From: Candidatus Gottesmanbacteria bacterium | GTDB taxonomy: Bacteria > Patescibacteriota > Microgenomatia > 2-02-FULL-39-11 | Direction of reading: 5' to 3' | Assembly: GCA_016186795.1 (NCBI GenBank) | Contig: JACPKY010000002.1 | Span: 26,593 to 90,592, forward strand | DNA length: 64,000 bases | Shown here: piece by piece, positions 3,684 to 19,157 of the stretch | How the letters are laid out: each line of letters opens with the position of its first letter | Position numbering within the stretch: the stretch's first letter is position 1 | Translations under genes and position numbers: made by a program | Notes under the pieces: model-generated | What the model was told of the DNA's origin: nothing | Database searches by the model: none | What the model saw: only the letters and a program-made list of their open reading frames with translations

Positions 3684-4136
3684 ATGATCACCATTGATCA
3701 ACTCAAAAAACTTCGGGAAAAGACTTCAGCAGGAGTCATGGATTGCCGAAAAGCCCTGGAAGAGGCAAAAGGCGATGAGAAAAAGGCTGAGGAACTTATT
3801 AAACAGTGGGCGTCCCAAAAGGCCGAGAAGAAGGCTGGCCGCGAAACATCTGCAGGACTTGTCGAGTCATACGTTCATGCAGGAAAAGTGGGAGTCCTTG
3901 TTGAAGTTTTGTGCGAAACAGATTTTGTGGCGAGAACCGACAACTTCAAAAACCTTGCTCATGAGATCGCATTACAAATTGCCTCAATGAACCCGAAAGA
4001 TGTCAACTCGCTTATGAAACAGGAGTACATTCGAGATCCAAAACTGACAATTGAAAAATTGGTGAAAGAAACAATTGGGAAGTTAGGAGAAAATATTAGG
4101 ATTGGGAAATTCGCGCGGATACGGCTTGGGGAGTAA
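3684..4136 (+). CDS. tsf: elongation factor Ts, short (150 aa) form
   Basis: LKKLREKTSAGVMDCRKALEEA (UBA-like N-terminal domain) and ETDFVARTDNFKNLAHEIALQIA. Sits immediately after rpsB. Confidence 0.9.
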   Translation: MITIDQLKKLREKTSAGVMDCRKALEEAKGDEKKAEELIKQWASQKAEKKAGRETSAGLVESYVHAGKVGVLVEVLCETDFVARTDNFKNLAHEIALQIASMNPKDVNSLMKQEYIRDPKLTIEKLVKETIGKLGENIRIGKFARIRLGE

Positions 4137-5862
4137 CTGCAGCGTTTTTCGCATAGAGTCGGCTTTTGACAAACAACGGAGATCGTTCTTTCACTCCTTT
4201 TCTATTTTCTACCTCTTGGATCGTAAGGGTTCCTCCAGTAAGTTTTTCCACTTGTGATAAAAACATTCTTGCCCGGGCAACAAATCTCCGAGGGCAAAGA
4301 ATGACTCCATTTTCAATTCGCCCGGCAAGAAATTGGTTGACAAATGTTCCTGCAGATGCGGGATCTCTTCCCACTAGCCACATTCCATCCCCATCAAAGA
4401 TCTGTACCATACTCTTATTTTTGGGAGTGGTTCCAATTTCATCATGAGTTAAGCGGCGGTGATCAAACCTCACGGCATACCCAGCAGGGTCAGCTGTTAT
4501 CGGACTTCTGTATACACCAGTATCGATATCTGCAATGACTGCGATATTTGGTCTGCGAAAAACTTTGGCAAGTTGTCGAACGATGGCTCCTCCTTCTCCA
4601 ATCAAAGCATAATCATATCCTGCTGGGATGGTGATGACCGCACGTTCTTCATCCCACGCGCCACCAATATATTTTAAATATTCTGTAAGTCCCTCTCGGG
4701 TGAAAGGAATGGCAACCTCTTCAAAGTGCGGTTTATTCCCATTTGCCGCCCATCTTTGCTGTTCTACCTCAACAATGAAGTACTCAACACCAGCCTTACC
4801 TATCCGTTTTATCCATGCCTCGCTTGAGCCTTTCAGTGTTGAGTAATGACAGTGAGTAAACGATGGCGCTTCTGGTTTCGGAGGCGATGATTTGGCAGCA
4901 CCAATAGCTTCAACATCAATGTGTCGTGGAATAATAATATTTTTCTTCCCAGGGTCATCTTCTCCGAGTGCGCTTGCTAAGGAAATTGACTTTGAAGGCT
5001 CAGTTGGAATTGGCTTTTCTCCTTCTTCTCCTTCAAAAAGGTTGGTTCCTGGATCTTGAAAAGACCCAGTTGTTTCCGGCTGACCCATTTCTGCATGACC
5101 TTTTACAATGTGTTCAGTATCAAGTGCTTGGAGTGTTTCTTGGTGAAGAGATTCACCAGCCGTCTCTTGCGGAGAAGTTCGGAGAGTGATTGTTGAAAAT
5201 TCCAGAGGTGATTCTGGTTTTGCTTCGGAAGGTTGGTATGAAAGAGTGCGTAGGAAACCGAAAAAGGTATATCCTTCGCGATTTAGAACGTCGCCTTTCT
5301 TTTCGATTTTCGGCCGTTCAAATTCATCTTTTTTCCCAATGATTTTGAAAAAGTCTCCCCGTCGAATAGCATACGCTGCATATCTTCGGTTTTCTCGAAC
5401 TGGAATAATTATCCGATCGTCTTCTTTCGACACTCCAATTTCATAGATAAGTCGGTGGCGCTGAGGTTCGCGGTGCGGATGTTCTGGGTCGAAAACATAT
5501 TTTTCCGGCCAGTGATTAAAAAATTGTTCAGCAGATTCACGGACGAGTTGATCGACATTGGAAAAATTCGGCTCTACTCGGATATATTCACTGTCAGAAG
5601 GGTTTTCAGAAAAATCCATTGTGAGAGAGGTTGCAACACCTACTCCTTCACGGGCACTTCCTGGTCCTGGTAAATGTTCCGAGGCAGGATAATTCCCTCG
5701 ACGTTTCTTGGGTAACGCCCTGTTTGGATTATAGACGAGGGAGGAATCCGCAAAATTCATTTGAGGAAGCGTCTTTACAACGTAAGGAGGCTGTTGTAGA
5801 TGTTCAGGAGCACTTGGACTAGGGCGCATCACTGGATTTTGTGGAAGATTTTCAAACCCCAT
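4096..5862 (-). CDS. large uncharacterised protein (588 aa), second gene of a two-gene operon; C-terminal half contains repeated GxxG (KH-like) segments
   Basis: Uninterrupted 588-codon ORF. IGKAGV, LIGEGGAIVRQL and KLTGGTLTI look like KH-type GXXG loops. No Walker A motif. Overlaps the tsf 3' end convergently by 41 nt. Confidence 0.55.
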   Translation of the reverse strand: MGFENLPQNPVMRPSPSAPEHLQQPPYVVKTLPQMNFADSSLVYNPNRALPKKRRGNYPASEHLPGPGSAREGVGVATSLTMDFSENPSDSEYIRVEPNFSNVDQLVRESAEQFFNHWPEKYVFDPEHPHREPQRHRLIYEIGVSKEDDRIIIPVRENRRYAAYAIRRGDFFKIIGKKDEFERPKIEKKGDVLNREGYTFFGFLRTLSYQPSEAKPESPLEFSTITLRTSPQETAGESLHQETLQALDTEHIVKGHAEMGQPETTGSFQDPGTNLFEGEEGEKPIPTEPSKSISLASALGEDDPGKKNIIIPRHIDVEAIGAAKSSPPKPEAPSFTHCHYSTLKGSSEAWIKRIGKAGVEYFIVEVEQQRWAANGNKPHFEEVAIPFTREGLTEYLKYIGGAWDEERAVITIPAGYDYALIGEGGAIVRQLAKVFRRPNIAVIADIDTGVYRSPITADPAGYAVRFDHRRLTHDEIGTTPKNKSMVQIFDGDGMWLVGRDPASAGTFVNQFLAGRIENGVILCPRRFVARARMFLSQVEKLTGGTLTIQEVENRKGVKERSPLFVKSRLYAKNAAVTPQAVSARISQS

Positions 5863-5901
5863 ACTTCCAGACTAGCAAAGGTCGTACTGGCTTGTAAAGC
5901 A

Positions 5902-7785
5902 TTATCGCAGTTTCATTTTTTTTGCTTGGTCCTCTGTCAATGTAATGTATCCGAGAAACAGGTCATTGGTATCATTGTAGAACTGATTCCAGAAAGCCGT
6001 CGCCAGATTTTCATTCGGAAAAAATATTGTATCCAATCCTCCCGGCTGAACCCCTTTTGCCCTTTTACTAAAGAATCGTAGGAATGTTTCTGACCTTATA
6101 ACAAGAGGAACGTAATGTTTAAATTCCAGTGGTCCATTTCCTGCCCCAAACTGTTCATCTTGGACAAAGTACTCAAGCCCGAGATAATTTTCCAGCTCAA
6201 TAAGGGGCATGATGTAGCGACTCTCAAGTTCGGATAAATGATACGAAGAAGCCAACTCTTCAAGCCTTCTTCGATAGGGAGGAAGTGGTGCATCACTTCT
6301 CTTTTTTGGGTTTGTCACGTGTGTTTTTAATGCGCTGACAATATATCTTGCCCACGGTTCGTGTATTTGTGAGAGACTTTCTTGGTACACCAGTCCGAAT
6401 TTCGCAAGAAGAATTTTCTGCTCGATTTCAGCTAAGATTGGAAGGGCGGTAAGAAATGTTGTGAGTCTATTTGTTCTCATTTTATGGCGGACATCGGTAT
6501 AGGTAGTAAATACTCCCTGGTCAGCATAGTGTGCCAAATACAGAAGTTGACCGCCAGAAAGGCGAGTTTCTTCTAGTTTCCGATACGCATCGAAGAAATT
6601 ATCAGAGGTAAAGGGAAGGGTAGGGAGGTTAGCAAAGCGGTCAGCTGCTTTAATTCGTGCAGCTCTGCGAATGAGTCTTTTTGATGGTAACTCTTTGATC
6701 CGCTCAAGCCATCTGGCGCCGTCTTCTTTCCCGATTTTCGTGAGGGATTTAAGAATAATCCATTGTTCGCGATTTAGGTGAAGGGGCAAACTTGATCCCT
6801 CCATGAGAAGTGTCGTATCGGTTGGTATATATGATGCATCTTCTCGGTGAAAATTTGTTTCCAAATCCTCAGGAATTTCATGGGTAAATGCCAAAGCCAC
6901 ATCGTCTGCAGCTTCAGCAAGGCTTACCGGGTCATTTTCGAGATCATCCTCAATCATCGTCCAAAGATACCAGGCAGTTGCCAGATAATGGCAGTACCAG
7001 TGTTCGTGGGTTTTTCTTGTGTTGTCTCCTTTTTGTTTGAGACGGACAGCGTCACTTTCTTGGGCAAAGCGCATAAACTCTTTAACTTGTGACGTATTGA
7101 TGCCTCGATTTCGCATTCGGAAAAGAAGCTGTTGTTCAATTTCTCTGCGGAAAGTTTCTTCATTTTGGTAACCCAAAAATCGATGCCGGTCAATTGTTTT
7201 CTGAGATGACCAGGGGACTTGCGCTTCCATCATTTTTTCGGTAAAGGCTGCAAGGTGTTCGGAAACATGTGTCACATGGGCATAATCCCAGTACATATCC
7301 CTTAGAAGAAGCGTATCGAAATTCCATCCGATGAGTCGTCTCTGAGGATTATTGGTAACCAGAACTCCTTGTATGGGGAGTCCATAGCGAATATCATGCG
7401 AAGTTATTCCTGTTGATATTCGTTGTACAAAAGTATGCGGTGCGTGTTCTGGGAGAAATTCGTCACTGACGTATCTTTTAAGGGAGGGGAGACGGGAGGT
7501 AAGATGATGATTGGAGTTTATACGCAAAATATCTTTTGCCTTTGCCTCAAGTTCTGGTTTTTTTGGAAGTGGCTTATCTCGAGCTTCCAGAAGTGCCCGG
7601 AGTAAAAATGGGTCGAACCGCTCCAACCCCAGAATATCCTCGAGCGCATCACTTTGGGATGAGTGGATCCAATCGGCAATTCTTGCAACGCTTCGCTGTA
7701 CAGGATACGGTAAATACGAAAGTACTCCGGCCGTTCCTTGCAAATTGTCCGTATTTCTTCGGGGGTCATTTTCAGGAAATGCCAT
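5902..7785 (-). CDS. large uncharacterised protein (627 aa) with His/Asp-rich region suggestive of an HD-type metal-dependent phosphohydrolase fold
   Basis: Uninterrupted 627-codon ORF. HVTHVSEH ... THEHWYCHYLATAWY ... EDDLENDP ... ADDVALAFTHEIPED clusters. Sits 40 bp upstream of the 588-aa gene on the same strand. Confidence 0.55.
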   Translation of the reverse strand: MAFPENDPRRNTDNLQGTAGVLSYLPYPVQRSVARIADWIHSSQSDALEDILGLERFDPFLLRALLEARDKPLPKKPELEAKAKDILRINSNHHLTSRLPSLKRYVSDEFLPEHAPHTFVQRISTGITSHDIRYGLPIQGVLVTNNPQRRLIGWNFDTLLLRDMYWDYAHVTHVSEHLAAFTEKMMEAQVPWSSQKTIDRHRFLGYQNEETFRREIEQQLLFRMRNRGINTSQVKEFMRFAQESDAVRLKQKGDNTRKTHEHWYCHYLATAWYLWTMIEDDLENDPVSLAEAADDVALAFTHEIPEDLETNFHREDASYIPTDTTLLMEGSSLPLHLNREQWIILKSLTKIGKEDGARWLERIKELPSKRLIRRAARIKAADRFANLPTLPFTSDNFFDAYRKLEETRLSGGQLLYLAHYADQGVFTTYTDVRHKMRTNRLTTFLTALPILAEIEQKILLAKFGLVYQESLSQIHEPWARYIVSALKTHVTNPKKRSDAPLPPYRRRLEELASSYHLSELESRYIMPLIELENYLGLEYFVQDEQFGAGNGPLEFKHYVPLVIRSETFLRFFSKRAKGVQPGGLDTIFFPNENLATAFWNQFYNDTNDLFLGYITLTEDQAKKMKLR

Positions 7786-7947
7786 ACTGACGGCTTATAC
7801 CATAATAGAGAGCTTGGTGGCAACTTTTCTTGCGTGAGGGCGTGCATGGTATAATCCGGCAAACCAGTTTGCACATTTACAGAGTGAGACGAGGACGGAA
7901 TTTTTTTTCTATCGGGCGGCAAACAAAAAAGGGAAAAGGAGGCAAAT

Positions 7948-8328
7948 ATGCCAGCTCAAGATTGGGCGAGTATGACATTTTCGAATGAAAACATTCGATA
8001 CATCATACTCAATTTTCGTGTTTTGTGGGGCCTGATCATTGGAATTTATGCGATACTATTAACTGGCGGTGTCATTGGTTCAAGTCCAATTGCCAGTTGG
8101 GGCTTGAAATACCTCCAGTGGCACGGCCGAACCGTCGTAGAAAAACAAGACGACACAAAGTTGATACCGCTCAAAGCGTATCTCTTTAAAACTTTGTGGC
8201 TTCTTGTTTTTATATGGTATCGCATTCATGTTTTTCCACGGGGAGGTCGAATGGCTTTTTCGCTAACAGGAGGGCATCGGATTTGTTCTGCGCCGATGCC
8301 TTTTCTCCATGTCATTCTGAGCAAGTGA
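7948..8328 (+). CDS. small hypothetical membrane protein (126 aa)
   Basis: RBS aaggagg 7 nt upstream of ATG. Hydrophobic segments present. The C-terminal codons overlap dispersed-repeat copy A. Confidence 0.5.
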   Translation: MPAQDWASMTFSNENIRYIILNFRVLWGLIIGIYAILLTGGVIGSSPIASWGLKYLQWHGRTVVEKQDDTKLIPLKAYLFKTLWLLVFIWYRIHVFPRGGRMAFSLTGGHRICSAPMPFLHVILSK

Positions 8329-8469
8329 AGCTCGTCATCTTTTTACTCGCCCTTTTCCCCACCTCGTCTCACTCTCTCATTTTCCACTCACAATTGACAT
8401 CGGGCGATTCCCTGTTATAATCTTGTTATAACAAGGGTATTTATGAACAGTTTCTAATGGAGGTGAGGT

Positions 8470-8715
8470 ATGATTCAAAAAATTATTAAAGTAGGAAATA
8501 GCGTTGCGGTGACGTTGCCAAATACATTCATTCAAGATACTGGCTTGAAGGCTGGTGATACGATTGCGGTAGAAACGTATCCTCAAAGAAAAATGGTCCT
8601 TATCAAACCTACGTCGGAAAAGAATCAAATGAGCTTGTCTCCGGAGTTTTTCTCGTGGCTTGAGAAAATAAGCAAGAAATACGAAAAAACAATAAAAGCC
8701 TTGGCGCGTGTATGA
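8470..8715 (+). CDS. AbrB/MazE (SpoVT-AbrB) family antitoxin
   Basis: IIKVGNSVAVTLPNTFIQDTGLKAGDTIAVE swapped-hairpin motif. RBS ggaggtgagg. Overlaps the downstream toxin gene by 4 nt (ATGA). Confidence 0.75.
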   Translation: MIQKIIKVGNSVAVTLPNTFIQDTGLKAGDTIAVETYPQRKMVLIKPTSEKNQMSLSPEFFSWLEKISKKYEKTIKALARV

Positions 8716-9098
8716 TCTACCTCGAGATAGATGAAGTCATTGCGATCCATGAGAAGATGCTAGAAATTGGAGGAGGACGAGAGGGAATAAGGGATTTTAC
8801 CCTGATTCACTCGGCAGTTGCCAGGCCGAAGGCAACATTTGCTGGAAAGCTTCTGTATCCAACTATTTGGCTTCAAGCTGCAGCACTGATCCAATCACTT
8901 ATTCGCAATCATCCATTCGATGATGGCAATAAACGCACAGGATTTTTTTCTACATTACGGTTTCTGGATCTTAATGGGTACGATATCAACGCAACAGAAG
9001 CTGAGATTATTTCCTTTGCCAGAAATGTTGACGTAAAGCGTCTTCCGATTGAAGATATCGCCTCGTTTCTCAAAAAGCACGCGAAGCGGTTAAAATAG
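8712..9098 (+). CDS. doc: Doc/Fic family toxin (death-on-curing)
   Basis: Fic motif HPFDDGNKRTG. About 128 aa. Translationally coupled to the upstream antitoxin. Confidence 0.8.
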   Translation: MIYLEIDEVIAIHEKMLEIGGGREGIRDFTLIHSAVARPKATFAGKLLYPTIWLQAAALIQSLIRNHPFDDGNKRTGFFSTLRFLDLNGYDINATEAEIISFARNVDVKRLPIEDIASFLKKHAKRLK

Positions 9099-9121
9099 TG
9101 AATTTCTGGTAGAATATCTTT

Positions 9122-9358
9122 ATGGTGTGGGATTACGATGAAGCAAAACTGAAACGGACAAAAGCAGGGAAGATATTTCTTCTTGAGAGAAGTATCAATT
9201 ATGGACAGAGGAGCAGGAAGAAAATTCAACTCCGGGAAGTGAAAAAATATTGGGATAAATTACATCTTTTTCCATTACAGAAGCGTCTGTTTGAGCTTTT
9301 CATATGGGGAAAATACCGCTCCTCTCCAAAGAGCAAGAAATCATTTTGGATGAGGTAA
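9122..9358 (+). CDS. hypothetical small basic protein (78 aa)
   Basis: ORF only. Confidence 0.2.
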   Translation: MVWDYDEAKLKRTKAGKIFLLERSINYGQRSRKKIQLREVKKYWDKLHLFPLQKRLFELFIWGKYRSSPKSKKSFWMR

Positions 9359-9510
9359 GAAAACACCCATTCCTCCTTATGTCGTCATTCTTCGAGCAAG
9401 CGAAGCGAGTCGAGAAGTAGTTGATGAAATTGAGGACAACACATTCGACGGGTTGGTTTTCGGCTGATGCGCCGAATGTGTTGTCGCTCAGTCGTTCAGA
9501 GATCAAAGGG

Positions 9511-9756
9511 TTAGCTCGAAAGCCGCGCGAGCATGTTTTTTACATCTTGCGATTGGCGTGCGGGGACGCCCAACTGCTCGAGGCGCACTTTGGAAAGCCC
9601 CGCCAGTTGCTCAGGTGTTTGAGCGACTCTGTGAATTTGCGAAACTGCATGGTCGGTAAGTCCGGGTAGGAGTTTTCGGAGTTGATCATATCCAACCCGG
9701 TTATTTTTGTGCGCGGCATTTTGCTGATCGCGCACATCGAGTTGTGAACGTTGCAT
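9511..9756 (-). CDS. small hypothetical protein (81 aa) in GC-rich island, possible HhH-like DNA-binding
   Basis: Internal Met MQRSQL preceded by GGAGAG RBS (revcomp of ctctcc at 9765-9770). LLPGLTDHAVSQI resembles a helix-hairpin-helix motif. Confidence 0.45.
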   Translation of the reverse strand: MQRSQLDVRDQQNAAHKNNRVGYDQLRKLLPGLTDHAVSQIHRVAQTPEQLAGLSKVRLEQLGVPARQSQDVKNMLARLSS

Positions 9757-9791
9757 AGTTCTCTCCTTACAATTCAGACTTGGAATTTGAA

Positions 9792-10235
9792 CTACTTGCC
9801 GCCGAACGCCTGGTGGAGCGCATTGCGCGCCCCGAGGGCATCGAGCTGATTGACACCAAGTTGTTCGATTTGCTCGGCTGTAATCGCGGCGAGTGCGGTG
9901 CGCGTGTTTGCTTTTCGCCACAGCGCGCGGATTTGCGGCTCATCGAGGTATAGCGAGACGACTTTTTGCACCTCTTCAAACGGAACAATTTTCTCCGCCT
10001 TTCGAGGTGTCTCGACGGCAAAGATCGTAATTGTTTTTCCGTTCCAGGTACCCGAACCGCGTCTTCCCGAAAGCTGAATTATCCTGCCAGCGCTGTACTT
10101 TTTCCGTCCACGATATCCGGCGCTCTTCCCGAGCCATTCGGAGATGATAACGGTCGCCGATGCTCCATTGATTCGTACGATTTCGTAGTTTTGGGCATCA
10201 TCTCCTATGCCAATAATGAGTTGTTGTCCTTGCAT
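9792..10235 (-). CDS. hypothetical protein (147 aa) in GC-rich island
   Basis: RBS GGAGAG 7 nt upstream. Same strand and operon arrangement as its neighbours. Confidence 0.5.
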   Translation of the reverse strand: MQGQQLIIGIGDDAQNYEIVRINGASATVIISEWLGKSAGYRGRKKYSAGRIIQLSGRRGSGTWNGKTITIFAVETPRKAEKIVPFEEVQKVVSLYLDEPQIRALWRKANTRTALAAITAEQIEQLGVNQLDALGARNALHQAFGGK

Positions 10236-10250
10236 GATTTTCTCTCCGTG

Positions 10251-10493
10251 TCAAGCCCGGTCCGCGGCGTACACGTCCACCAAAACTTCCGCTGCACCGA
10301 ATTTGAGCTGCCCCATAAATCTCTTGAGTCGGAACTGGGTGCCGGCGCCCCAATTCGGCTCGCCAAGGAATCCGTCGCTCGTCCCCTCTATTTTCTGGAC
10401 TGTGACGACGGATCCAATTTTGATCGCCCCCGTGACCTGGACAAAGACCGCTGCCCCAGGTGATCCGAGAGCAATTAACATTGTGCCTGCCAT
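10251..10493 (-). CDS. hypothetical protein (80 aa) in GC-rich island
   Basis: Strong RBS AGGAGGAG immediately upstream of ATG. Confidence 0.5.
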   Translation of the reverse strand: MAGTMLIALGSPGAAVFVQVTGAIKIGSVVTVQKIEGTSDGFLGEPNWGAGTQFRLKRFMGQLKFGAAEVLVDVYAADRA

Positions 10494-10592
10494 GGCTCCT
10501 CCTATCTTATCGGCCAGACCCGAGTCTTCGGATCTAGCGAATTGACACTTTCGGTACGATCTGTTTAGGCTATGCTATTTTTCCTCCTTTCA

Positions 10593-10650
10593 ATTGACGG
10601 GTCAGTCATGGAAAGAAACATTCTTTCCACAATATACCCGTCAATTTTTC
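10593..10650. terminator. nested hairpin (attgacgggt ... acccgtcaat with inner ggaaaga/tctttcc) followed by T5
   Basis: 10-bp perfect inverted repeat 10593-10602/10636-10645 enclosing a 7-bp IR, followed by ttttt. Confidence 0.4.
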
Positions 10651-10659
10651 TGAACGACT

Positions 10660-10850
10660 TGTTAAAGTACTTTTTCATTCCAACACAAATCTCCACGCAG
10701 AACGTGGTTATGTAGTGGGCATGAAATTTTTCTTTATGGTCATAATCTTTTTTCCAGACAATCCCGAGCATGTCGAAGGATTATCTGGTTTTCTTAATTC
10801 CTAACGTATTCGAAACTAGGAAAAACAGGGGTAGGAAAATTAGAAAAGTG
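10660..10850. repeat. copy 1 of ~170-bp diverged repeat element; core hairpin CCACGCAGAACGTGG at 10694-10708
   Basis: Core 10681-10740 aligns with 11491-11560 (about 80% identical), with weaker similarity in flanks (ttcgaaact...aggg...agg). Confidence 0.6.
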
Positions 10851-11049
10851 ATGACGACACGATTGCGTCTGATAAATGGATATCACCACGTTCCTTTTTT
10901 CCCTTTCTTTTAGGACCCCCCCTTTGGCCCTATGTAGAAAGCCCAGTCATCCGACAAAGGCTAACTACCTACGAAACTAAATATCAAAGGATAGATGGAT
11001 AAGGACAAAATGTTGTCCAAGACCTTTTGGGAGTTGGACAACATTTCTG

Positions 11050-11244
11050 CTATTTTGGGAGTGGGAGCAGGACCCACCCAACTGCGCTTATCAGGACAAT
11101 TGTGAGTACAACGACTACGGTCATCCTGATAAGGCGACCGTGTGAGAACCATAGCCAGAACCATTTGCCGGGATCCTCACCGTACACGACTTCTCCAGGA
11201 TCCCCGGAGACATGTGCACCTTGGGTTTGTGGATGCTTTGCCAT
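11050..11244 (-). CDS. small single-pass membrane protein (64 aa)
   Basis: Internal Met preceded by GGAGGAAAT RBS. The C-terminal MTVVVVLTIVLISAVGWVLLPL segment is a TM helix. Confidence 0.45.
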   Translation of the reverse strand: MAKHPQTQGAHVSGDPGEVVYGEDPGKWFWLWFSHGRLIRMTVVVVLTIVLISAVGWVLLPLPK

Positions 11245-11469
11245 ATTTCCTCCTTGAGAATTGAGTCTTTTCACTTGATCGATATCAAGTGAAAAGATTT
11301 ATGGCGAACTTGCGAGATTTTTTTCGATCGATTTTGTGCTTCTGTCCTCCTCCTTTCGGGTAAGTGATTGAATTTCCAATCCAAGCTAGCTAGGTTGATA
11401 CAAAATGCCCAAAATATATCAACAACATCTTGTGCCAACCTAGCTTTCCCGAAGGATTTTCTATCCTTT

Positions 11470-11640
11470 GACTTGTCAAAGAGCATTTTCCATTCCACCG
11501 CAAATCACCACGCAACCGTGGTTATGAGGCAGAATGAAATGTATTTTTCATCTGATCGTATTGTCAAAATCTAATGATGTTTTTTCAGTCTCGAAATTCT
11601 TCGAAACTCAAAGAACAAGGGAAAGGTGATGAGAAGAGGT
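11470..11640. repeat. copy 2 of ~170-bp diverged repeat element; core hairpin CCACGCAACCGTGG at 11508-11521
   Basis: Aligns to copy 1. Direct orientation, about 810 bp apart. Confidence 0.6.
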
Positions 11641-11737
11641 GCCGTGAGGGCGGAGACTGCGCGGGGCGCAGAATCTATCGCGCATGCGCGACAGTCTCCG
11701 CCCTTTTGGCGTCATCACTTTACCCTCATTCTTTGGG

Positions 11738-13084
11738 TCACGGCCCGTGTCCCGGTTGCTGCCCGCTTTGGCCTGCGGCGGGCGGATGCCGGCGCTGGTT
11801 GAGCCGTTGCTCCATCTCCTCTAGCCGGTGCTCGATTTCTTCTCGAGCGATATCGGTTGCCTGCTGACCACCAAAGGTGGTGAAGATTACGACCACGAGC
11901 CAAATCGCCGCCAGTAGCAAGCAACCTGCCCACAGATATGGTAATAAAACCCATTTGTCTGTGGCTGTTACGAAAATGAGGCAACCCAAAGCCAAATACA
12001 TCGGAAACTCGATCCAGTCGGGGATTTTCTCCCGAATGAACCGAGTGTGCCGCCAAAGCTCGCGGAGAAGCCAGATCACGATCCACCCACCGATCAGAAT
12101 GACGATGCCCCAAAAGACATATGGGAGCAGATCTGCGACTTGTTTTGCCGCGTTGGCTGCGGTGCCGACTACCGGATTGATTTCTTTCGAATCGAAAGAG
12201 CCGCCGAAGCAGCTCCCCTGAACTTTCGTTTCATTCGAAAGAACCTTTAGATCAACCCAACCGGTTCCTGCCTTCAGATCGTATGAGACGCTGGTTCCGT
12301 CCGACGCAAGGTAAGTTCCCTTGCAGTCGGGAATTGGTGTTCCCGTGGGGATGGGCGTGTTGGTAGAGGGAACCGGCGTGTTGCTCGGCGGAGGCGTGTT
12401 GCTCGGCGGAGGCGTGCGCGTCGGCGGTATCGACGTTCGCGTCGGCGGGGGGGTCCGACTTGGACCGAACCGAAGGGCGTTGGCCTTAGCCTGGGCGGTT
12501 TGTTCTACGGCCGCGGCTTGTGCCTGGGCGACCATTTCGGTCGCTTTGGCGGCCACCGTCGCACCCCTCTGTACTGCGTTGGCCGTCGCCGTTGGCGGCG
12601 GCGTGGCCGTGCAACGGGGGCCTCCCTGGAGTAGGCACGGCTGGTTGGCACGAAGATTCGCCAACCGCTTGAAGTCGCCCACTGATTGGGCTATCCAAGT
12701 CGACCCATCGGCCATCGCGACCGACTCAACCCTCCCCGCGGGTTGAGAGTCGGCGACGACGCCGAGCATAATTAGCCCGCACAAGCAAAGCGCGAGAAGG
12801 CCTATAATTATTGCTACCCCCCAGCGCCCTAGGGCGTCGATGTGCCCCGTGTGCAGTAGCACATGAGGCTGCTCGGCGTGTCCTCCGTGTCCGTCGGCTG
12901 CGTGCGGTGCGGCTCGTCCGTGCTCGGCGGCGTGCTCGGGCGGCGGATCATCGTCAGTCTCTTCGTCTTCGCCACGGCGGCGGAAACCGGAGAGGAGGCG
13001 CCAGGCCAAAAAAATTACCACCGCCGCTGCGATGACCTGCCATGGAACTGGCAGGTCATTTAGGAAGGAGAGAATTCCTTCCAT
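11738..13084 (-). CDS. GC-rich polytopic membrane protein with Pro/Thr-rich tandem-repeat linker (about 448 aa)
   Basis: RBS-like GAAGGAAG lies before the second ATG (MEGILS). There are at least 5 hydrophobic helices. PPPTRTSIPPTRTPPPSNTPPPSNTPVPSTNTPIPTGTPIP linker. His/Asp-rich N-terminal tail. Confidence 0.55.
   Translation of the reverse strand: MEGILSFLNDLPVPWQVIAAAVVIFLAWRLLSGFRRRGEDEETDDDPPPEHAAEHGRAAPHAADGHGGHAEQPHVLLHTGHIDALGRWGVAIIIGLLALCLCGLIMLGVVADSQPAGRVESVAMADGSTWIAQSVGDFKRLANLRANQPCLLQGGPRCTATPPPTATANAVQRGATVAAKATEMVAQAQAAAVEQTAQAKANALRFGPSRTPPPTRTSIPPTRTPPPSNTPPPSNTPVPSTNTPIPTGTPIPDCKGTYLASDGTSVSYDLKAGTGWVDLKVLSNETKVQGSCFGGSFDSKEINPVVGTAANAAKQVADLLPYVFWGIVILIGGWIVIWLLRELWRHTRFIREKIPDWIEFPMYLALGCLIFVTATDKWVLLPYLWAGCLLLAAIWLVVVIFTTFGGQQATDIAREEIEHRLEEMEQRLNQRRHPPAAGQSGQQPGHGP
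12350..12450. repeat. degenerate 18-21-bp tandem repeats (ggcgtgttgctcggcggag x about 5) encoding PPPSNTP repeats on the minus strand
   Basis: Direct reading: ggcgtgttgctcggcggag ggcgtgttgctcggcggag gcgtgcgcgtcggcgg... Confidence 0.7.
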
Positions 13085-13269
13085 GGTTTTTCTTCCTTCT
13101 GACCCGCACTGGGTCATGCCTCTTTCGAGGATGACGGGGTGCGAATCACTTTACTTCTTTTTTTGATTTTGATAGACGTACTGCGCGACGGAGGCAAGTA
13201 TTTTGTCCCCATGGAGCAGTACTCTATCATAGATTAAATAATTTTTATCACCTTTCCCTATGTTAATGT

Positions 13270-13296
13270 GCAAAAAAAACTCCCTTGTGGGGAGTT
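13270..13296 (-). terminator. rho-independent terminator downstream of the phd-relE operon
   Basis: The minus strand reads cacacgaaCTCCCcacaaGGGAGtttttttt. Confidence 0.5.
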
Positions 13297-13448
13297 CGTG
13301 TGCGCAATGTTTCCTTATTCCTACGCTCCCGAACTCCTCGTTCGGATAACAAAAGAAATAGTAAGGATGATATTGGCGTCTTTGACAATGTTCATCGTAT
13401 AGAGAGAGTTTATATCATATCCTATAGTTGCGTGTCAAGTACGGGAAT

Positions 13449-13700
13449 CTACTTGTAGATTTCTCTGCGGTGGCCAATAGAGAGAATAATTATTGTGTTT
13501 CCCTTTATATCAAAGACTACTCGATAATCTCCTATGCGGTATCTATACATACCAATATCTGAATTTATAAGTTTTTCAGCAAAAAATAGAGGAGCCTTTG
13601 AGGAAGCAAAAAATTCGAGCTTATCGCTTATTCGTCTTTGGGTAGGTTTAGGAAGTCTTCGGAATTCTTTGAGCGAATGAGAATTGAATTCTATGACCAT
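13449..13700 (-). CDS. relE: RelE/ParE family toxin
   Basis: About 83 aa. YRIGDYRVVFDIKGNTIIILSIGHRREIY is a typical RelE/ParE C-terminus. Lies immediately downstream of the antitoxin. Confidence 0.8.
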   Translation of the reverse strand: MVIEFNSHSLKEFRRLPKPTQRRISDKLEFFASSKAPLFFAEKLINSDIGMYRYRIGDYRVVFDIKGNTIIILSIGHRREIYK

Positions 13701-13982
13701 TTATAATCCAAGTTGTTTTTTTACCTCTTCCAAAGAGATAGTTTTTGTATCCTTCCGACTCTCTGCGATACGTGCGCGAAAGGTAGGAGAAGAGAGTGCT
13801 TCTATATCCTCTATAATACTTTGCCACATTTCATTTGGGATGAGTACGCCCAGTGGTTGGCCATTTTTCATGACGCGGTAAAACGAGGATGTTTTTTTTG
13901 CTTTTTCAAATAGTTTGGTCAAGCCCGCCTGGGCTTTCTGGATGTTGGTAAATTTTTCGTCACTGATAAGTTGTTGTATCAT
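13701..13982 (-). CDS. phd: Phd/YefM family antitoxin
   Basis: 93 aa. Abuts relE with no gap. Layout is the usual antitoxin-first arrangement, with a Phd-like N-terminal fold. Confidence 0.75.
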   Translation of the reverse strand: MIQQLISDEKFTNIQKAQAGLTKLFEKAKKTSSFYRVMKNGQPLGVLIPNEMWQSIIEDIEALSSPTFRARIAESRKDTKTISLEEVKKQLGL

Positions 13983-14041
13983 AATTACATGATTATATAA
14001 TTATATAATACTTCTGTAATATATGTCAAGTTTAAGGTGGA

Positions 14042-16432
14042 TTATCCCTTTTGAGGCGGATGATTTTGTGATATCTGAGGTTTGCGTGGGGGCTGTTGTG
14101 GAAGGCCAGTCAGTTTCGGCTTCAGAGGATTTTGGGCTATAGGATTGGGTTTTGGCTGTGGTGGTTGCGGTTTTTGACCAAGAGATGGTTTTAGTTGTGG
14201 TGTCTCTGCAACTGGTGCCTTAACTGGTGGCGCTTTTGGTTCCCACAGCTTACTATCCGGCTTTTTGGTGTAGCGTTCCTGGGAAAGTCGGAGAATCTTT
14301 TCTTTATTTTGGTTAATTGACCGTGGCAATGGCAAAGTTAAGGCATAAAAGGGAAGCGAGGTAAGGTTATCTATTGCCAATTTAATAATGACCTGATATG
14401 CACCCAGTGCAACTAAATCTTCTTCTTTGTACCACTGTCCGAACTCTCTTGATAGGGCATGGGCATCTTGTGCACCAATCACAAATGAGATAAGAGTACC
14501 CGCATTGCCAAAAATAGCTTTCTGGACTGTTTCATCGACCTGGCCGATATATTGATTGGCAAGGATAAGATCAAGGCGATATTTCCGCGCCTCAGAGAGA
14601 ATTTTGATAAAAGAAGTCGTGGCAAAGTTTTGGAACTCATCAACATAGAGGTAGAAATCGCGTCGCTGCGTCTCCATGACATTGACTCTGTTCATCGCAG
14701 CCAGCTGGATTTTGGTGATAAACATAGCTCCAAGTAGGGCCGCATTATCTTCTCCCAATTTTCCCTGGGCAAGGTTTAATATGAGGATTTTCCCCTGATC
14801 CATAATATCCTCTAGATCAATCGTTGATTGCGGGTGTCCGATAATTTGCCGGATTGTTGGGGATTGGACAAATTGTCCAACTTTATTTTGGATAGGGGCA
14901 ATCGCTTCACTTTTAAGCCTCGGGTGCATTTTCTCAAATTCGTTATGCCAGAAGTTTTGCAATATCCTATCCGGGACTTTCGTCAGCAGCTGTTGACGAA
15001 AATTTTGATCGGCAAGTAAATCAAGCGCCATAGGAAGTGTAGCATTGGGATACTCAAGAAGGGTGAGAACGACATTTCGAAGGATATACTCAAGTCGCGG
15101 TCCCCATGAATAGGCGTAGAGTTTGGAAAAAATTGACACAATTCCTGAGGCGACCAATTCCTTGTGAACAGGGTTTTTTATCTCCAAAGGATTTATCCAA
15201 AAAGGATGCTGTTGATCAAACGGCTCAAGGTAAATAACATCATTGAGCCGGTACGATGGAATATAGTTAAGAAGAATTTCGGATAAATCTCCGTGAGGAT
15301 CAATGACCGCTAGTCCTTCTCTATTTCGCATATCGTTTATGGCCATGTTTGCGATAAGAGTTGATTTACCGGTTCCCGTTTTTCCGATGATGTACATGTG
15401 TTTGCGCCTGTCCGGCCGTTTTATCCCAAAGGTCATCATCTGGTTTTTAAATTCAGATTTGGCGAAGAAATTTATTTCTTTTTTCTCTTCATCGGTAAGA
15501 TTTAAAGAAACCGGCAGATTTTGCGGCGGTTCTCCATGCATGTGTCTGCCCCAGGCGATATTCCGAATGCCAGCAAGAAGCATCGTTGGTGGATGCCAAA
15601 TGGTTGCCAGCTCAGCAGTATTCAAGATTTGGTTTCGCGGATAATGGCTTTTTTCCCGTTTGACAATACGGTTGAAGATCACTCGTTTCCAAAAAAATCT
15701 GGGTCTTCGAAGGACGAGCCGATTCCCTTCTCCCATGGCAAATGCGCCGAAAGCGCCTGCGACATTGGCCATAAGAGAAAGTGCATTGCTATGGGTATCG
15801 GCGCCAATAAGAAGTCGGATGTATGTTCGATATCCAGATTGATTTATTTTTTCCTCAATAAGTTGGGCGTGGGGGAACTGCTTGGTTTTCGTCGGTGCAG
15901 TAGGTGTTGGATCTGGAATTCCCCGTTCAATCATCCGGGCAGTATTTCCTTGCCAGTTAAAGTGCGGTGGTTCAATAATAATTTGAATAAGTCCGGATTG
16001 TTGAGGCGTAAATTTCGAAAGGACCCCAAGAATTGATGAGAGTGGATCAAGGTCTTTAAATTCCTCATGCCGTTTGATGGGGTAGTAGTATGGTGCTGCA
16101 AGCTGAAGATTGCCAACAGCCATATAGGGATTTTTGGCAATCTGCGGAACATAGTCATGTATTGGGGTAATAAGGAGTTTGTGGTACTGGGAGACCAGCT
16201 GACTTTCCATAAACGTCTGGAAGGATTTTGGCACAACAACACAAAAATGGATGGTCTGGTTGATATTGACGATTTCAAAAGAAAGTGTGCGGACTTTGAT
16301 CCACAGCCTCTTCCAATGGGGGATATGACCGCCGGGGAAGAGTGCTGAAAATACTTGCTGCATCGATGCGGGAGTCTCCTCGGCAGTTTTGGGGGAACGG
16401 ATTTCCAAGATGACTTTCTCTTCCTTTGCCAT
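14042..16432 (-). CDS. VirD4/TraG/TraD-like type IV coupling-protein-family ATPase (HerA/FtsK superfamily, DUF87-like) with Pro-rich C-terminal tail
   Basis: Walker A GKTGTGKST. Walker B region YLYVDEFQNF. ILANQYIGQ. C-terminal PKAPPVKAPV...PQPPQPKPNP low-complexity tail. Confidence 0.7.
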   Translation of the reverse strand: MAKEEKVILEIRSPKTAEETPASMQQVFSALFPGGHIPHWKRLWIKVRTLSFEIVNINQTIHFCVVVPKSFQTFMESQLVSQYHKLLITPIHDYVPQIAKNPYMAVGNLQLAAPYYYPIKRHEEFKDLDPLSSILGVLSKFTPQQSGLIQIIIEPPHFNWQGNTARMIERGIPDPTPTAPTKTKQFPHAQLIEEKINQSGYRTYIRLLIGADTHSNALSLMANVAGAFGAFAMGEGNRLVLRRPRFFWKRVIFNRIVKREKSHYPRNQILNTAELATIWHPPTMLLAGIRNIAWGRHMHGEPPQNLPVSLNLTDEEKKEINFFAKSEFKNQMMTFGIKRPDRRKHMYIIGKTGTGKSTLIANMAINDMRNREGLAVIDPHGDLSEILLNYIPSYRLNDVIYLEPFDQQHPFWINPLEIKNPVHKELVASGIVSIFSKLYAYSWGPRLEYILRNVVLTLLEYPNATLPMALDLLADQNFRQQLLTKVPDRILQNFWHNEFEKMHPRLKSEAIAPIQNKVGQFVQSPTIRQIIGHPQSTIDLEDIMDQGKILILNLAQGKLGEDNAALLGAMFITKIQLAAMNRVNVMETQRRDFYLYVDEFQNFATTSFIKILSEARKYRLDLILANQYIGQVDETVQKAIFGNAGTLISFVIGAQDAHALSREFGQWYKEEDLVALGAYQVIIKLAIDNLTSLPFYALTLPLPRSINQNKEKILRLSQERYTKKPDSKLWEPKAPPVKAPVAETPQLKPSLGQKPQPPQPKPNPIAQNPLKPKLTGLPQQPPRKPQISQNHPPQKG

Positions 16433-17364: not shown

Positions 17365-17420
17365 TCGAATTGGGAACAGTGGAAGTACAAAAAACTTATT
17401 TCCAGCGTTCCCAATTCGAA
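17365..17420. repeat. 14-bp perfect inverted repeat (ttcgaattgggaac / gttcccaattcgaa)
   Basis: Read directly. Lies 20 nt upstream of the RBS of the 17441 gene. Confidence 0.55.
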
Positions 17421-17440
17421 ATAGGGGAGGGGAAAATATC

Positions 17441-17821
17441 ATGTCAAAAGGAGATACGAACATGTCAGCAACAAGAACAACAGGTGGCGCCGAGAGGAAT
17501 CGAGCTTTTGCTCGTCTAAAAGCCGCCGCGCGCGTCATGAGCTTAGGCATGAATCATATGCCGATTCCCTGCGACGATTGTGAGTTCCGTCGCTGGAAAC
17601 GCATGTTTCCGAGGATTGCCTACGCATCTCTTGACGAAGTGAGAAATGATTTGGTCCTTGTAGACGGGACACGGCGAGGGTTGCGTGATGGATTTAGGAC
17701 TTATGAAATCAAAAGTCCTCGTACGTCGCCGGCTAAGGGAATCACTCTCCACTCATGTCTGTCGCGTTTTATTTTTGGCAGACAACGGAATCAGCGACGG
17801 TTTTTGGCGCCACGGAGGTGA
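17441..17821 (+). CDS. hypothetical basic protein (126 aa), GC-elevated
   Basis: RBS aggggagggg upstream. A Cys pair, CDDCEF. Confidence 0.35.
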   Translation: MSKGDTNMSATRTTGGAERNRAFARLKAAARVMSLGMNHMPIPCDDCEFRRWKRMFPRIAYASLDEVRNDLVLVDGTRRGLRDGFRTYEIKSPRTSPAKGITLHSCLSRFIFGRQRNQRRFLAPRR

Positions 17822-18106
17822 GATGCGCCGATCATTAAAAATAACCGTCAGCCCATTTCGCTCAACGGTGAAATCCAACGGCGCAGCACGGGTGCCCCGC
17901 AAAAAGCCTCGCCATTTTCGCTGGGCATGGTGGCAGGTATTGCGCGACCCAATGGCGCTTCTTGCGTTGAATCACCGGCGACGAATCCGGGTGCTCGCTA
18001 GGCGTTCATAATAAAAAATATATCAGATTGGATTTACCGGAAATCCCCCTCCCTTTCGGTAAAAAGCCGATCTGATAATCTGTATTCTCAAGGAAGGAGA
18101 AATTTC

Positions 18107-18818: not shown

Positions 18819-19157
18819 ATGGCCCGTTCCAAAAGCAAAAATGTTCGGACGGTCCGATCCTACATTCCAGTTGCAAAGGGCAACTGGGTTCAGGTTTGGA
18901 TGTTAGAAAAAGGGGACTACGTTGTCCAGCGAGCTGATGAATTTCAGTCGCGCCGCTTGGGCATGAAAATCCTCTTTGCGGGTGGAAAAATCCAGTGTTC
19001 GAAAGGAAGGGTTATTTCCAAAGATCAAAGAAAGGGCATGGATCGCCCGCAGCTTTTGAGACCCGAAGACTGGGTTTTCAAAGTTCCGTTTAAGGACATG
19101 GCAGTTCATCCTGCCATGTACAATTACCCACCTTCGGGCGCGTTTTCGACTTCATAA
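18819..19157 (+). CDS. hypothetical protein (112 aa)
   Basis: RBS gagaggagg before the internal Met MARSKSK. A 12-bp IR sits in its 5' UTR. Confidence 0.45.
   Translation: MARSKSKNVRTVRSYIPVAKGNWVQVWMLEKGDYVVQRADEFQSRRLGMKILFAGGKIQCSKGRVISKDQRKGMDRPQLLRPEDWVFKVPFKDMAVHPAMYNYPPSGAFSTS

Follow-up and report, generated by a model that had tools for sequence, protein, structure and literature searches.

A strain-specific accessory region of a Candidatus Gottesmanbacteria chromosome with two GC-rich units, one of them a putative surface-protein cassette

The window analyzed here, a 64,000-nt stretch of a Candidatus Gottesmanbacteria (CPR/Patescibacteria) chromosome, raises the question of how several kilobases of markedly GC-rich sequence came to lie in a low-GC genome. 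The first-pass annotation described a single horizontally acquired island of about 3.7 kb, possibly derived from a phage or plasmid, or alternatively an assembly chimera. The GC jump itself was confirmed by sliding windows (up to about 0.70, compared with 0.42 for the host). The 300-nt windows outside 9200-13300 had a mean GC of 0.418 (sd 0.036, maximum 0.543), and those inside reached 0.697 (z up to 7.8). Instead of a single island, two GC-rich blocks were observed, block A (9440-10530, GC about 0.53) and block B (11600-13150, GC 0.51-0.67), and the roughly 1.1 kb between them (10530-11600, GC 0.39-0.48) was host-like. The five minus-strand genes of 81, 147, 80, 64, and 448 aa were present as described, with GGAG-type ribosome-binding sites, and the third-position GC (GC3) of all five was far above the host range (host ORFs: mean 0.364, sd 0.033, maximum 0.430). 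As the GC3 of the GC-rich genes (0.51-0.66) exceeded the 0.37-0.43 expected with host codon usage, amino-acid composition alone does not account for the GC excess.

The GC steps are abrupt, as would be expected if a low-GC organism had been joined to a higher-GC organism during metagenome assembly. This was excluded because independent assemblies from at least six runs (those compared at the borders were SRR12113383/384/420/422/424/430) carried 100% identical sequence across both borders of the GC-rich part, and the six were identical across all borders. Host-type promoter, ribosome-binding sites, and spacers were also interleaved with the GC-rich genes, and homologous loci from unrelated samples showed the same GC pattern, leaving a chimera with virtually no chance. 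The GC-rich "island" is real and not an assembly error, yet it is not one imported block.

The surroundings of the GC-rich genes were delimited by comparison with related loci, and the features concerned are as follows.

3684-4136, plus strand: tsf, left flank of the accessory region (Pfam)
4137-14041, no strand: strain-specific accessory region; the same two flanking genes lie 15 bp-4.9 kb apart in 11 related loci
8470-8715, plus strand: MazE/AbrB-type antitoxin (Pfam PF04014, 29.3 bits, cut-off 24.7)
8712-9098, plus strand: Fic/Doc toxin (Pfam PF02661, 69.8 bits, cut-off 24)
13449-13700, minus strand: ParE/RelE toxin (Pfam PF05016, 41.5 bits, cut-off 23)
13701-13982, minus strand: Phd/YefM antitoxin (Pfam PF02604, 41.0 bits, cut-off 29.8)
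14042-16432, minus strand: VirD4/TrwB-like ATPase gene, right flank of the accessory region (Pfam)

The tsf and VirD4-like genes are conserved and convergent, and they nearly abut in most relatives; the gap between them was at most 330 bp in seven of the 11 Gottesmanbacteria-type loci, compared with 9.9 kb in the present chromosome. The accessory region therefore exceeds its GC-rich part. It contains two GC-rich units, which are unrelated to each other, two toxin-antitoxin pairs, and further unknown genes. The toxin-antitoxin modules reported on either side of the GC-rich genes (MazE/AbrB-type and Fic/Doc on one side, Phd/YefM and ParE/RelE on the other) all scored above the Pfam gathering thresholds. 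When the presence or absence of the five GC-rich genes was checked at the tsf locus of related genomes, none of the 22 related loci carried any of them. Thus, the proposal of a horizontally acquired module is supported insofar as the region is accessory, and not supported insofar as it invoked a single imported island. Neither integrase, transposase, nor tRNA genes were detected, nor were flanking direct repeats, and the suspected phage or plasmid origin found no tblastn, pattern, or PHROG matches. The supposedly dispersed repeat at 9384-9417 had no second copy in the window at up to three mismatches, the best other match being 13 nt.

The first GC-rich unit and the spacer beside it comprise the following features.

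9435-9485, minus strand: hairpin with a 16-bp stem that follows the operon and lies at the GC boundary on the left
9511-10493, minus strand: three-gene operon (80 aa, 10251-10493; 147 aa, 9792-10235; 81 aa, 9511-9756)
10656-10735, minus strand: repeat R, copy 1, upstream of the operon
11008-11046: palindromic hairpin after the 64-aa ORF
11050-11244, minus strand: 64-aa ORF with a single transmembrane (TM) segment and an AAGGAGG ribosome-binding site
11470-11548, minus strand: repeat R, copy 2, within the AT-rich spacer that precedes the 64-aa gene

One product of the operon is small and beta-rich; the other two share paralogous SAM/(HhH)2-like domains, located at the C-terminus in the 147-aa protein and represented by the 81-aa protein itself. 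The earlier label of "HhH-like" proteins is thus upheld at the level of fold and only there; such a domain would bind nucleic acid or protein. Homologues of the operon proteins were not detected; for the 80- and 81-aa proteins, this applies to the smaller protein collections. This unit (Unit 2, 9435-10530) was probably gained in this lineage. The two copies of repeat R are 78% identical (E = 1.7e-9).

The second GC-rich unit (Unit 1) is built around the largest gene.

11738-13084, minus strand: gene for the 448-aa membrane protein, its start supported by the family alignment
12375-12448, no strand: 18-bp tandem repeat encoding the PPPSNT/PPPTRT linker

The reported Pro/Thr linker encoded by tandem repeats and the TM helices were both recovered, the latter as four strong hydrophobic segments and one weaker. 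The topology predicted from the positive-inside rule begins with TM1 (13-31), an acidic/His-rich loop, and TM2 (92-110), continues with an extracytoplasmic region made up of a Cys-containing module, an Ala-rich helix, the Pro/Thr linker, and, at 251-305, a beta module bounded by Cys, and closes with TM3-5 and a charged C-terminal helix. In agreement with the earlier remark that the protein has no recognizable function, no assignment was obtained from Pfam, PHROGs, PADLOC, NCBIfam, or PDB sequences. The protein may be a variable, membrane-anchored surface protein; the evidence for its putative exposure at the surface is hydropathy together with a structure model of low confidence (mean pLDDT 57.8).

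In word-indexed protein searches with this family, low-complexity Pro/Thr matches overwhelmed the results. When 1.84 billion representative proteins were scanned in full with HMMER, the family proved to be tiny, with six real homologue clusters and no homologue from a high-GC context. Its seven loci (the window and six others) all lie in low-GC contexts, and in all seven the family gene was 10-23 GC points above its own flanks. Its GC3 was raised by 0.17-0.35 over the host, and the offset tracked the host (r = 0.88, n = 7). For the 448-aa gene, the observed GC of 0.608 compares with 0.512 expected from its own amino acids and host codons, and its GC3 of 0.656 with 0.393 expected from host codons; about half of the excess corresponded to amino-acid composition (Pro, Ala, Gly, Thr, and Arg) and the other half to synonymous sites. 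Two pairs of loci were syntenic (the window with L008, and L010 with L013). Between the window and L008, the VirD4-like neighbor was 79% identical and the non-coding ends of the cassette were about 79-81% identical at the nucleotide level, whereas the cassette protein was 41% identical and domain-mosaic.

These data bear on the reading that one 3.7-kb block was recently imported from a higher-GC donor (a phage, a plasmid, or another bacterium), its GC being the donor footprint. The GC3 of all five genes far beyond the host range, their absence from the 22 related loci, the variable hotspot with toxin-antitoxin modules around them, and an operon without detectable relatives are consistent with such an import. 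However, the two blocks are split by host-like spacers carrying a shared repeat, the 448-aa family is GC-rich in seven of seven low-GC contexts with GC3 scaling with the host, and the protein scan for high-GC homologues, the search for mobility genes and repeats, and the phage and plasmid comparisons described above were all negative. As the cassette lies 10-23 GC points above the host wherever it is found, being GC-rich characterizes this class of cassettes, and the 448-aa gene does not appear to be a recent import from a high-GC donor, although a high-GC reservoir outside the sampled genomes is conceivable. The family loci already contradict import of the whole block, which is considered unlikely; import of the operon is possible.

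Unit 1 and the sequence just upstream of it include the following elements around the 448-aa gene.

11607-11734, minus strand: 3' element of about 128 nt, a GC-rich long hairpin of -72 kcal/mol (covariance model, 126.8 bits)
11618-11630: distal arm of the 3' element, AGGGAAAGGTGAT on the plus strand, an exact inverted repeat of M1
13171-13228, minus strand: conserved 5' hairpin of the cassette leader, 18 pairs
13247-13271, minus strand: motif M1 of the cassette, GCACATTAACATAGGGAAAGGTGAT; the left inverted-repeat arm is formed by its final 13 nt
13277-13337, minus strand: a pair of overlapping hairpins, with a T-run after the second
13409-13438, minus strand: candidate sigma-70-like promoter (TTGACA, 18 nt, TATAAA)

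In order, the cassette has an upstream motif (GCACnTTAACA..AGGGAAAG), followed by a 5' hairpin that shows covariation, then the gene, and then the 3' hairpin, the far arm of which repeats the upstream motif exactly in inverted orientation. The same architecture was observed in the six family cassettes with enough flank and in one cassette with unrelated cargo (L025), located in the same hotspot of another genome. M1 is specific to the cassettes; L007 lacked it within 420 nt upstream, and the flank of L009 was too short to judge. In the 5' hairpin, nine of 18 pairs showed compensatory double changes among seven sequences, and the G-U pairs fell on the sense strand. The 3' element follows every family gene, as well as the second, tandem cassette in L010, and corresponds to no Rfam family; its pair counts come from an alignment produced by fitting to the covariance model, with three of its rows taken from the reverse strand. 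It folds equally well on either strand, and thus its RNA and DNA roles are not separable. The candidate promoter was proposed from aligned upstream sequences, with similar sequence upstream of the L008 and L006 cassettes, and was absent from the consensus-scan list. The hairpins at 13277-13337 either terminate the toxin-antitoxin operon or act as an attenuator within the leader of the cassette. No description of the architecture was found in the libraries consulted; this cassette type, an inverted-repeat-flanked gene for a putative surface protein, is rare and undescribed.

Exact inverted repeats of 10-14 nt with locus-specific extensions bracket the gene in seven cassettes (one being L025), and they could belong to a phase-variable invertible gene. 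A site-specific recombinase encoded elsewhere would flip the segment between the arms at 13247-13259 and 11618-11630, so that the TTAACA element upstream would no longer be joined to the gene and its -10 region and the surface protein would be switched off. The arm extensions match within a locus and differ between loci (GGTGAT, GATGAT, GATGGA, and ATAGTGA), as expected from recombination between arms; the left arm lies inside the promoter-like motif, and the cargo is a fast-evolving surface-type protein. We give inversion a small but real chance, as no recombinase gene was recognized in the accessory region or beside the other cassettes, and in the six independent assemblies a single orientation was seen and neither arm coincided with a contig break. 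In addition, the right arm forms half of the long local hairpin, which would conserve it without inversion.

The same elements could be read as a mobile cassette, integron-like or a cargo-carrying non-autonomous transposon, which would bring its own composition along when inserting at preferred sites. In three genomes, the same hotspot is occupied by discrete units that have conserved ends but differ in cargo, two cassettes stand in tandem in L010, and the roughly 125-nt imperfect palindrome immediately after the ORF is attC-like in size and position. However, the attC core triplets GTT/AAC are not conserved (L010a and L013 have ATT), and the conserved sequence continues upstream beyond the repeat (GCACnTTAACA), indicating that the repeats are not element termini. 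Target-site duplications were absent, no integrase or transposase was found nearby, and the cassette shared by L010 and L013 occupies a syntenic position, as expected if it is stably inherited. Mobility of this kind appears quite improbable.

We favor, with a probability of about 0.6, a composite in which a strain-specific accessory hotspot region holds two unrelated GC-rich units, Unit 1 being an example of the surface-protein cassette type. Unit 1 (about 13271 to 11607, minus strand) would be a self-contained cassette that expresses a variable surface protein anchored in the membrane. M1 would act as a cassette-specific promoter-like motif, the 5' stem-loop would lie at or near the mRNA start, the Pro/Thr-rich, cysteine-bounded modules of the protein would face outward, and the very stable 3' stem-loop would end the cassette. 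Related cells may exchange cassettes through recombination, both at the hotspot and via the conserved non-coding ends, as suggested by three hotspot loci (the window, L008, and L025). The synonymous GC excess would be upheld by a cassette-linked force and not be the remnant of a high-GC donor; candidates are GC-biased repair of frequent recombination and selection for highly structured, stable mRNA. Composition, genes, hotspot, family, cassette architecture, and RNA covariation are shown by the data; inferred are the exposure of the protein at the surface, the exchange of cassettes, what causes the GC3 excess, and any function.

The setting resembles genomic plasticity regions, integration hotspots that are typically rich in toxin-antitoxin genes and lie between conserved core genes: presence or absence is polymorphic between fixed flanks (tsf and the VirD4-like gene), the content differs per genome, and two type II toxin-antitoxin pairs and deviant composition are present. 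It differs in the lack of a detected integrase, transposase, tRNA gene, or flanking direct repeat, and in the confinement of deviant composition to individual gene units instead of the whole insert. GC-biased gene conversion occurs in bacteria (Lassalle et al. 2015, PMC4450053) and would explain a raised GC3 limited to frequently recombining genes at a level following the host baseline; the likeness is drawn from the GC3 offset in the sequences (+0.17 to +0.35).

Like the present cassettes, integron gene cassettes (ORF plus attC) consist of one compact gene followed by an imperfect palindrome of similar length that folds as a long hairpin, and can stand in tandem with different cargos. The present cassettes differ in having their own conserved upstream promoter-like motif and leader, no conserved attC core triplets, and no IntI-type integrase in view; integron cassettes lack an inverted copy of the 3' arm as an upstream motif. 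Invertible switches (Hin/Gin-type and Bacteroides invertons) likewise have short exact inverted repeats around a control segment of a surface protein, with one arm within promoter-like sequence, whereas the segment bracketed here is a whole 1.6-kb gene with structured ends, with no invertase found and no second orientation in the six assemblies.

A hypervariable Pro-Thr-Asp repeat surface protein of Gracilibacteria (CPR) was read as an attachment protein under diversification pressure (PMC6851277). By description, it is alike in coming from the CPR, in its N-terminal membrane anchor, and in its extracellular Pro/Thr-rich tandem repeat. The Gracilibacteria case involves nucleotide-level hypervariation in one repeat array, whereas the present one is a multi-TM family with conserved flanks and a gene-wide GC excess.

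The interval between tsf and a VirD4/TrwB-like ATPase gene is a hotspot filled by what is best read as a composite accessory region, with one member of a rare, undescribed class of surface-protein cassettes and a three-gene operon that has no detectable homologues. The following features of the window are concerned.

3684-4136, plus strand: tsf, one border of the hotspot
9511-10493, minus strand: operon encoding proteins of 81, 147, and 80 aa
11050-11244, minus strand: gene encoding a 64-aa protein
11607-11734, minus strand: 3' element of the cassette, with its distal hairpin arm, M3, at 11618-11630
11738-13084, minus strand: gene encoding the 448-aa protein
13171-13228, minus strand: 5' hairpin of the cassette
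13247-13271, minus strand: M1, the upstream motif of the cassette
14042-16432, minus strand: VirD4/TrwB-like ATPase gene, the other border of the hotspot

The first-pass annotation, which had also allowed for an assembly chimera, was confirmed for the five minus-strand island genes (81, 147, 80, 64, and 448 aa) and for their ribosome-binding sites of the GGAG type. Independent assemblies of at least six sequencing runs contained contigs that encode the exact island proteins; these contigs were 100% identical to the window, and several of them crossed both borders and the inner spacers. As the junctions were 100% identical in the assemblies of six runs, the GC-rich region is not an assembly chimera. 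The toxin–antitoxin pairs described on its flanks were recovered as PF02604 with PF05016 and PF04014 with PF02661, all over gathering scores; each is an adjacent pair of small antitoxin and toxin genes, as in type II modules.

Using the VirD4/TrwB-like ATPase, a neighbor identified by Pfam, as the query, 22 related loci were fetched, and tsf and rpsB were convergent to the VirD4-like gene in 11 of them. In seven of these 11 loci, tsf and the VirD4-like gene were separated by 15–330 bp; two further loci had gaps of 1.2–1.3 kb, and the remaining two had gaps of 2.5 and 4.9 kb, compared with 9.9 kb in the window (4137-14041). The five island genes were found in none of the 22 loci, and the proposed check for their presence or absence in relatives thus showed them to be missing between conserved flanks. 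Because of this absence and the 9.9-kb gap, the accessory segment must exceed the GC-rich part and is mostly of host-like composition. Two large genes of host-like GC (588 and 627 aa) occupy 4096-7785, and their products had no match in Pfam, NCBIfam, or PADLOC; the 627-aa protein has a relative with 34% identity about 5 kb from tsf in another fetched locus (L028). An 81-aa coiled-coil-like protein (MLTKIDLLSIRN...) is conserved in the same hotspot at L025:14792-15037 (a Gottesmanbacteria genome from GTDB) and L032:12528-12773 (a Patescibacteria bin) and was not found in the window.

VirD4-like genes are common on Patescibacteria chromosomes and lie mostly far from virB4 (PMC12102498), and this neighbor alone is therefore no sign of a conjugative element. 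No integrase or transposase Pfam domain was found among the ORFs of the accessory region, no tRNA gene adjoins it (the sole tRNA gene of the window is at 56.3 kb), and no flanking direct repeats were found around it. Of the suggested horizontally acquired island, the absence from the same site in relatives was borne out, while the signatures of mobility were lacking. An origin from a phage or plasmid gained no support from tblastn searches against phages and plasmids or from scans of viral contigs, none of which returned relatives.

A local GC excess is routinely taken to mark horizontal transfer. Outside 9200-13300, 300-nt windows had a mean GC of 0.418 (sd 0.036, maximum 0.543), and within this interval GC peaked at 0.697. 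The GC rise was thus real, but the single island of about 3.7 kb described earlier resolved into two blocks, at ~9440-10530 (GC about 0.53) and ~11600-13150 (GC 0.51–0.67), separated by a host-like spacer of 1.1 kb (GC 0.39–0.48). A second copy of the supposedly dispersed repeat at 9384-9417 was not found in the window. Mild GC-rich patches (0.51–0.54) also occur beyond the VirD4-like gene at 17400-17900 and 18950-19250, where they overlap small Arg-rich ORFs of 126–136 aa. The GC3 of thirty host ORFs averaged 0.364 (sd 0.033, maximum 0.430). The excess is more than an effect of amino-acid composition, because the five island genes had a GC3 of 0.51–0.66, compared with 0.37–0.43 expected with host codon usage. 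For the 448-aa gene, amino acids raised the GC from 0.420 to 0.512 and synonymous choice from 0.512 to 0.608, about half each.

The three operon proteins had no match in phages, plasmids, or family libraries, and the only match of the 147-aa protein in a word-indexed search of 5.8 billion clustered proteins was itself. The small proteins had been described as HhH-like, of which the fold was recovered and the family assignment was not. A five-helix SAM-like/(HhH)2 fold was present in the C-terminus of the 147-aa protein and in the 81-aa protein; neither matched an HhH family of Pfam or NCBIfam at E ≤ 1, the Foldseek matches for this domain had E > 0.3, and the candidate hairpin reads LGV instead of the Gly-hydrophobic-Gly of HhH. 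The operon and the 64-aa gene each have, upstream in an AT-rich spacer, a copy of an 80-nt repeat (78% identity), which is probably a promoter or leader module common to the two.

Hydropathy and a weak AlphaFold model (built from 7 sequences, mean pLDDT 57.8) gave the following layout for the 448-aa protein: TM1 (13–31) followed by an Arg-, acidic-, and His-rich loop, TM2 (92–110), and, in the C-terminal part, three further hydrophobic helices and a charged C-terminal helix. The region of ~210 residues after TM2 contains a small Cys-containing module, an Ala-rich helix, a Pro/Thr linker, and a Cys-bounded beta module (251–305). The linker had been reported to be encoded by a tandem repeat, and an 18-bp repeat was indeed present. 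From the positive-inside rule, the Pro/Thr region would face outward. A variable Pro/Thr-repeat surface protein has precedent in a CPR genome (PMC6851277). The family proteins are mosaics, two of which (P0004 and P0002) are devoid of the beta module.

When 1.84 billion representative proteins were scanned in full with HMMER, six real clusters of homologues of the 448-aa protein emerged (E 2e-55 to 6e-20). The other 17 matches, all with E > 1e-5 and confined to the middle of the query, with its Pro/Thr-rich stretch and beta module, look like low-complexity matches. Word-indexed searches with the protein and the family profile were dominated by Pro/Thr words and returned just one or two family members, and the profile found no member among GTDB species genomes. 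Searches of Pfam, PHROGs, PADLOC, NCBIfam, and PDB sequences with the five proteins and their neighbors gave no match for the island genes.

GC of the 448-aa gene family and of its flanks in the window and in six fetched loci (L-handles)
Locus; gene GC; flank GC
Window; 0.607; 0.418
L006; 0.644; 0.411
L007; 0.580; 0.347
L008; 0.553; 0.393
L009; 0.557; 0.455
L010; 0.506; 0.388
L013; 0.486; 0.312

The family gene was 10–23 GC points above its flanks in all seven contexts. Its GC3 likewise exceeded that of neighbors (0.42 versus 0.12–0.28, 0.52–0.53 versus 0.21–0.42, and 0.56 versus 0.26–0.35) and tracked the host baseline with an offset of +0.17 to +0.35 (r = 0.88, n = 7 cassettes). In L008, which is syntenic with the window, the family gene directly follows a gene for a VirD4-like protein 79% identical to that of the window, while the two family proteins share just 41% identity; L010 and L013 have a common syntenic site different from that of the window and L008. 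No family homologue was found in a high-GC context. Since the gene is GC-rich in every low-GC context and no high-GC homologue was found, recent import from a high-GC donor fits poorly, and the foreign-donor composition proposed earlier does not hold for the 448-aa gene, the GC excess of which recurs in 7/7 low-GC hosts and scales with the host. These results point to a property travelling with, or maintained in, the gene itself.

M1, GCACnTTAACA(n1-3)AGGGAAAG, precedes the family gene in the window, L006, L008, L010, and L013. Upstream of the L007 gene (L007:1100-1300), M1 was absent, and short tandem repeats of the CTGAATTCTGAA type follow a 23S_rRNA_IVP-family gene. In 442 kb of fetched loci, the M1 core (TTAACA, 0–3 nt, AGGGAAAG) was confined to cassettes and always in gene orientation. 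A general promoter was rejected, as GCACnTTRACA occurs only once in the 64-kb window, and a DNA uptake sequence was rejected, as exact AGGGAAAGRTG occurs just 3 times in 64 kb. A metagenome-wide scan for the M1 pattern gave 41 loci, nearly all by chance, the real ones being only L047 (same contig as L010) and L069; the scan of viral contigs gave 11 matches and no cassette. Seven metagenome contigs (WLWI/WLWD; L049, L056, L059, L062, L066, L068, and L070) carry a near-identical, conserved 35-nt element, TGAGCACYTTAACAGAAGGGAAAGCARAAAMAAA, which fits the M1 pattern with no GC-rich gene after it.

The 5' hairpin, 20–75 nt past M1, has 18 pairs, nine of which show compensatory double changes among seven sequences. 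It also contains several G-U pairs on the sense strand, which points to an RNA structure in the leader. Directly past the stop codon of every family gene is the 3' element, a long GC-rich hairpin of about 125–128 nt with folding energies of −49 to −73 kcal/mol. A covariance model trained on three copies recovered the remaining ones (L013 weakly, E = 0.51) and one additional copy behind a second, tandem cassette of L010; neither the window nor the 22 Gottesmanbacteria loci had a further copy. In an alignment fitted to the model, 89.9% of cells were paired compared with 47–57% in slid controls, and folding showed no asymmetry between sense and antisense. Neither the 5' nor the 3' element matched Rfam at gathering thresholds, and E-value mode gave only chance-level miRNA and snoRNA matches (all E > 0.1). 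A diversity-generating retroelement target or group II intron was dropped: no RNA family matched, the Pfam-scanned ORFs had no reverse-transcriptase match, and the C-terminus of the 448-aa protein is transmembrane. Between the RelE stop and M1 (13277-13345), GGAGTTCG can pair with CGAACTCC, or AACTCCC with GGGAGTT, which is followed by eight T. From its sequence, this stretch resembles a terminator/antiterminator pair and could be just the terminator of the toxin–antitoxin operon or an attenuator of the cassette.

In M3, the AGGGAAAG part of M1 recurs exactly, in inverted orientation. The repeat is extended by locus-specific bases, with both arms agreeing within each locus. Exact inverted repeats of 10–14 nt flank seven cassettes.

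Inverted-repeat cores of individual cassettes (L010b, second cassette of L010)
Window; AGGGAAAGGTGAT
L006; AGGGAAAGATGATA
L008; AGGGAAAGATGGA
L010b; AAGGGAAAGGA
L025; AAGGGAAATAGTGA

A segment bracketed in this way could be an invertible switch; however, the six consensus assemblies show one orientation only, their contigs are unbroken at the arms, and no recombinase was found in the neighborhood.

Other cargos were found in cassettes of this kind. In the L025 cassette, which occupies the same VirD4–tsf hotspot, the cargo is a different GC-rich gene, for a secreted or membrane protein of 309 aa. The second L010 cassette (L010:11461-12776), with its own M1, 5' hairpin, and 3' element, encodes a 289-aa two-TM Pro/Thr-rich protein; L069 is a further cassette of this type (type B). 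Their long leader (CGGCCAATTCCCAA...GAGGCCATCC...) is conserved in both, which suggests a further structured leader RNA. In L032:12500-21900 (Patescibacteria bin FK_Sedi_A_Bin.134, JAMCUI010000004.1), at least six GC-rich genes (GC 0.53–0.58, GC3 0.55–0.73) lie downstream of the orthologous VirD4-like gene, one of which encodes a Pro/Thr-rich protein of 740 aa that has Cys/Trp-rich modules. Upstream of three of these genes is a repeated module (GCnCnTTAAnA, TGAATGATAACGGA, and a conserved hairpin, TTTGGCGCGAGAGAA...), and large GC-rich hairpins lie downstream of two units.

The cassette in the composite accessory region would be an autonomously expressed, variable surface protein, the alleles of which may be exchanged at the hotspot, and a process tied to the cassette may maintain the synonymous GC excess. 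Candidate processes are biased repair during recombination, a form of which has been proposed for bacteria (PMC4450053), and selection for structured, stable mRNA. On a wider reading, Gottesmanbacteria and related CPR bacteria would have a dedicated, undescribed variable-surface-protein cassette system (promoter motif, 5' stem-loop, GC-rich gene, and large 3' stem-loop), in which the matched inverted repeats act as recombination sites for inversion or allele swapping at the hotspot, and recombination or mRNA-structure selection keeps GC high despite the host's AT-biased mutation pressure; we give this tentative proposal about one chance in four.

The surface molecules with which CPR bacteria attach to the cells they live on are mostly unknown. 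A candidate for a role in attachment or antigenic variation is the 448-aa protein, which is rare, fast-evolving, modular, and predicted to face outward and has conserved control elements of its own. Its family, which stays 10–23 GC points and 0.17–0.35 in GC3 above whichever low-GC host carries it, provides a counter-example to composition-based island calling, and the persistence of this excess calls for an explanation other than horizontal transfer. A new regulatory or recombination device could be formed by the 5' hairpin, the 3' element of 128 nt, and the matched inverted repeat, none of which matches an Rfam family.

The 3' palindrome recalls an integron-like or transposon-like mobile cassette, a reading that fails on the defining features that can be tested. 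Integron gene cassettes combine attC sites having conserved AAC...GTT triplets with a promoterless ORF, and an IntI integrase and attI lie upstream of the array. Here, no integrase domain was found among the neighbors, the core triplet varies (GTT in the window, L006, and L008; ATT in L013 and the first L010 cassette, L010a), and each cassette, in contrast to a promoterless ORF, has a conserved promoter-like motif and leader ahead of it.
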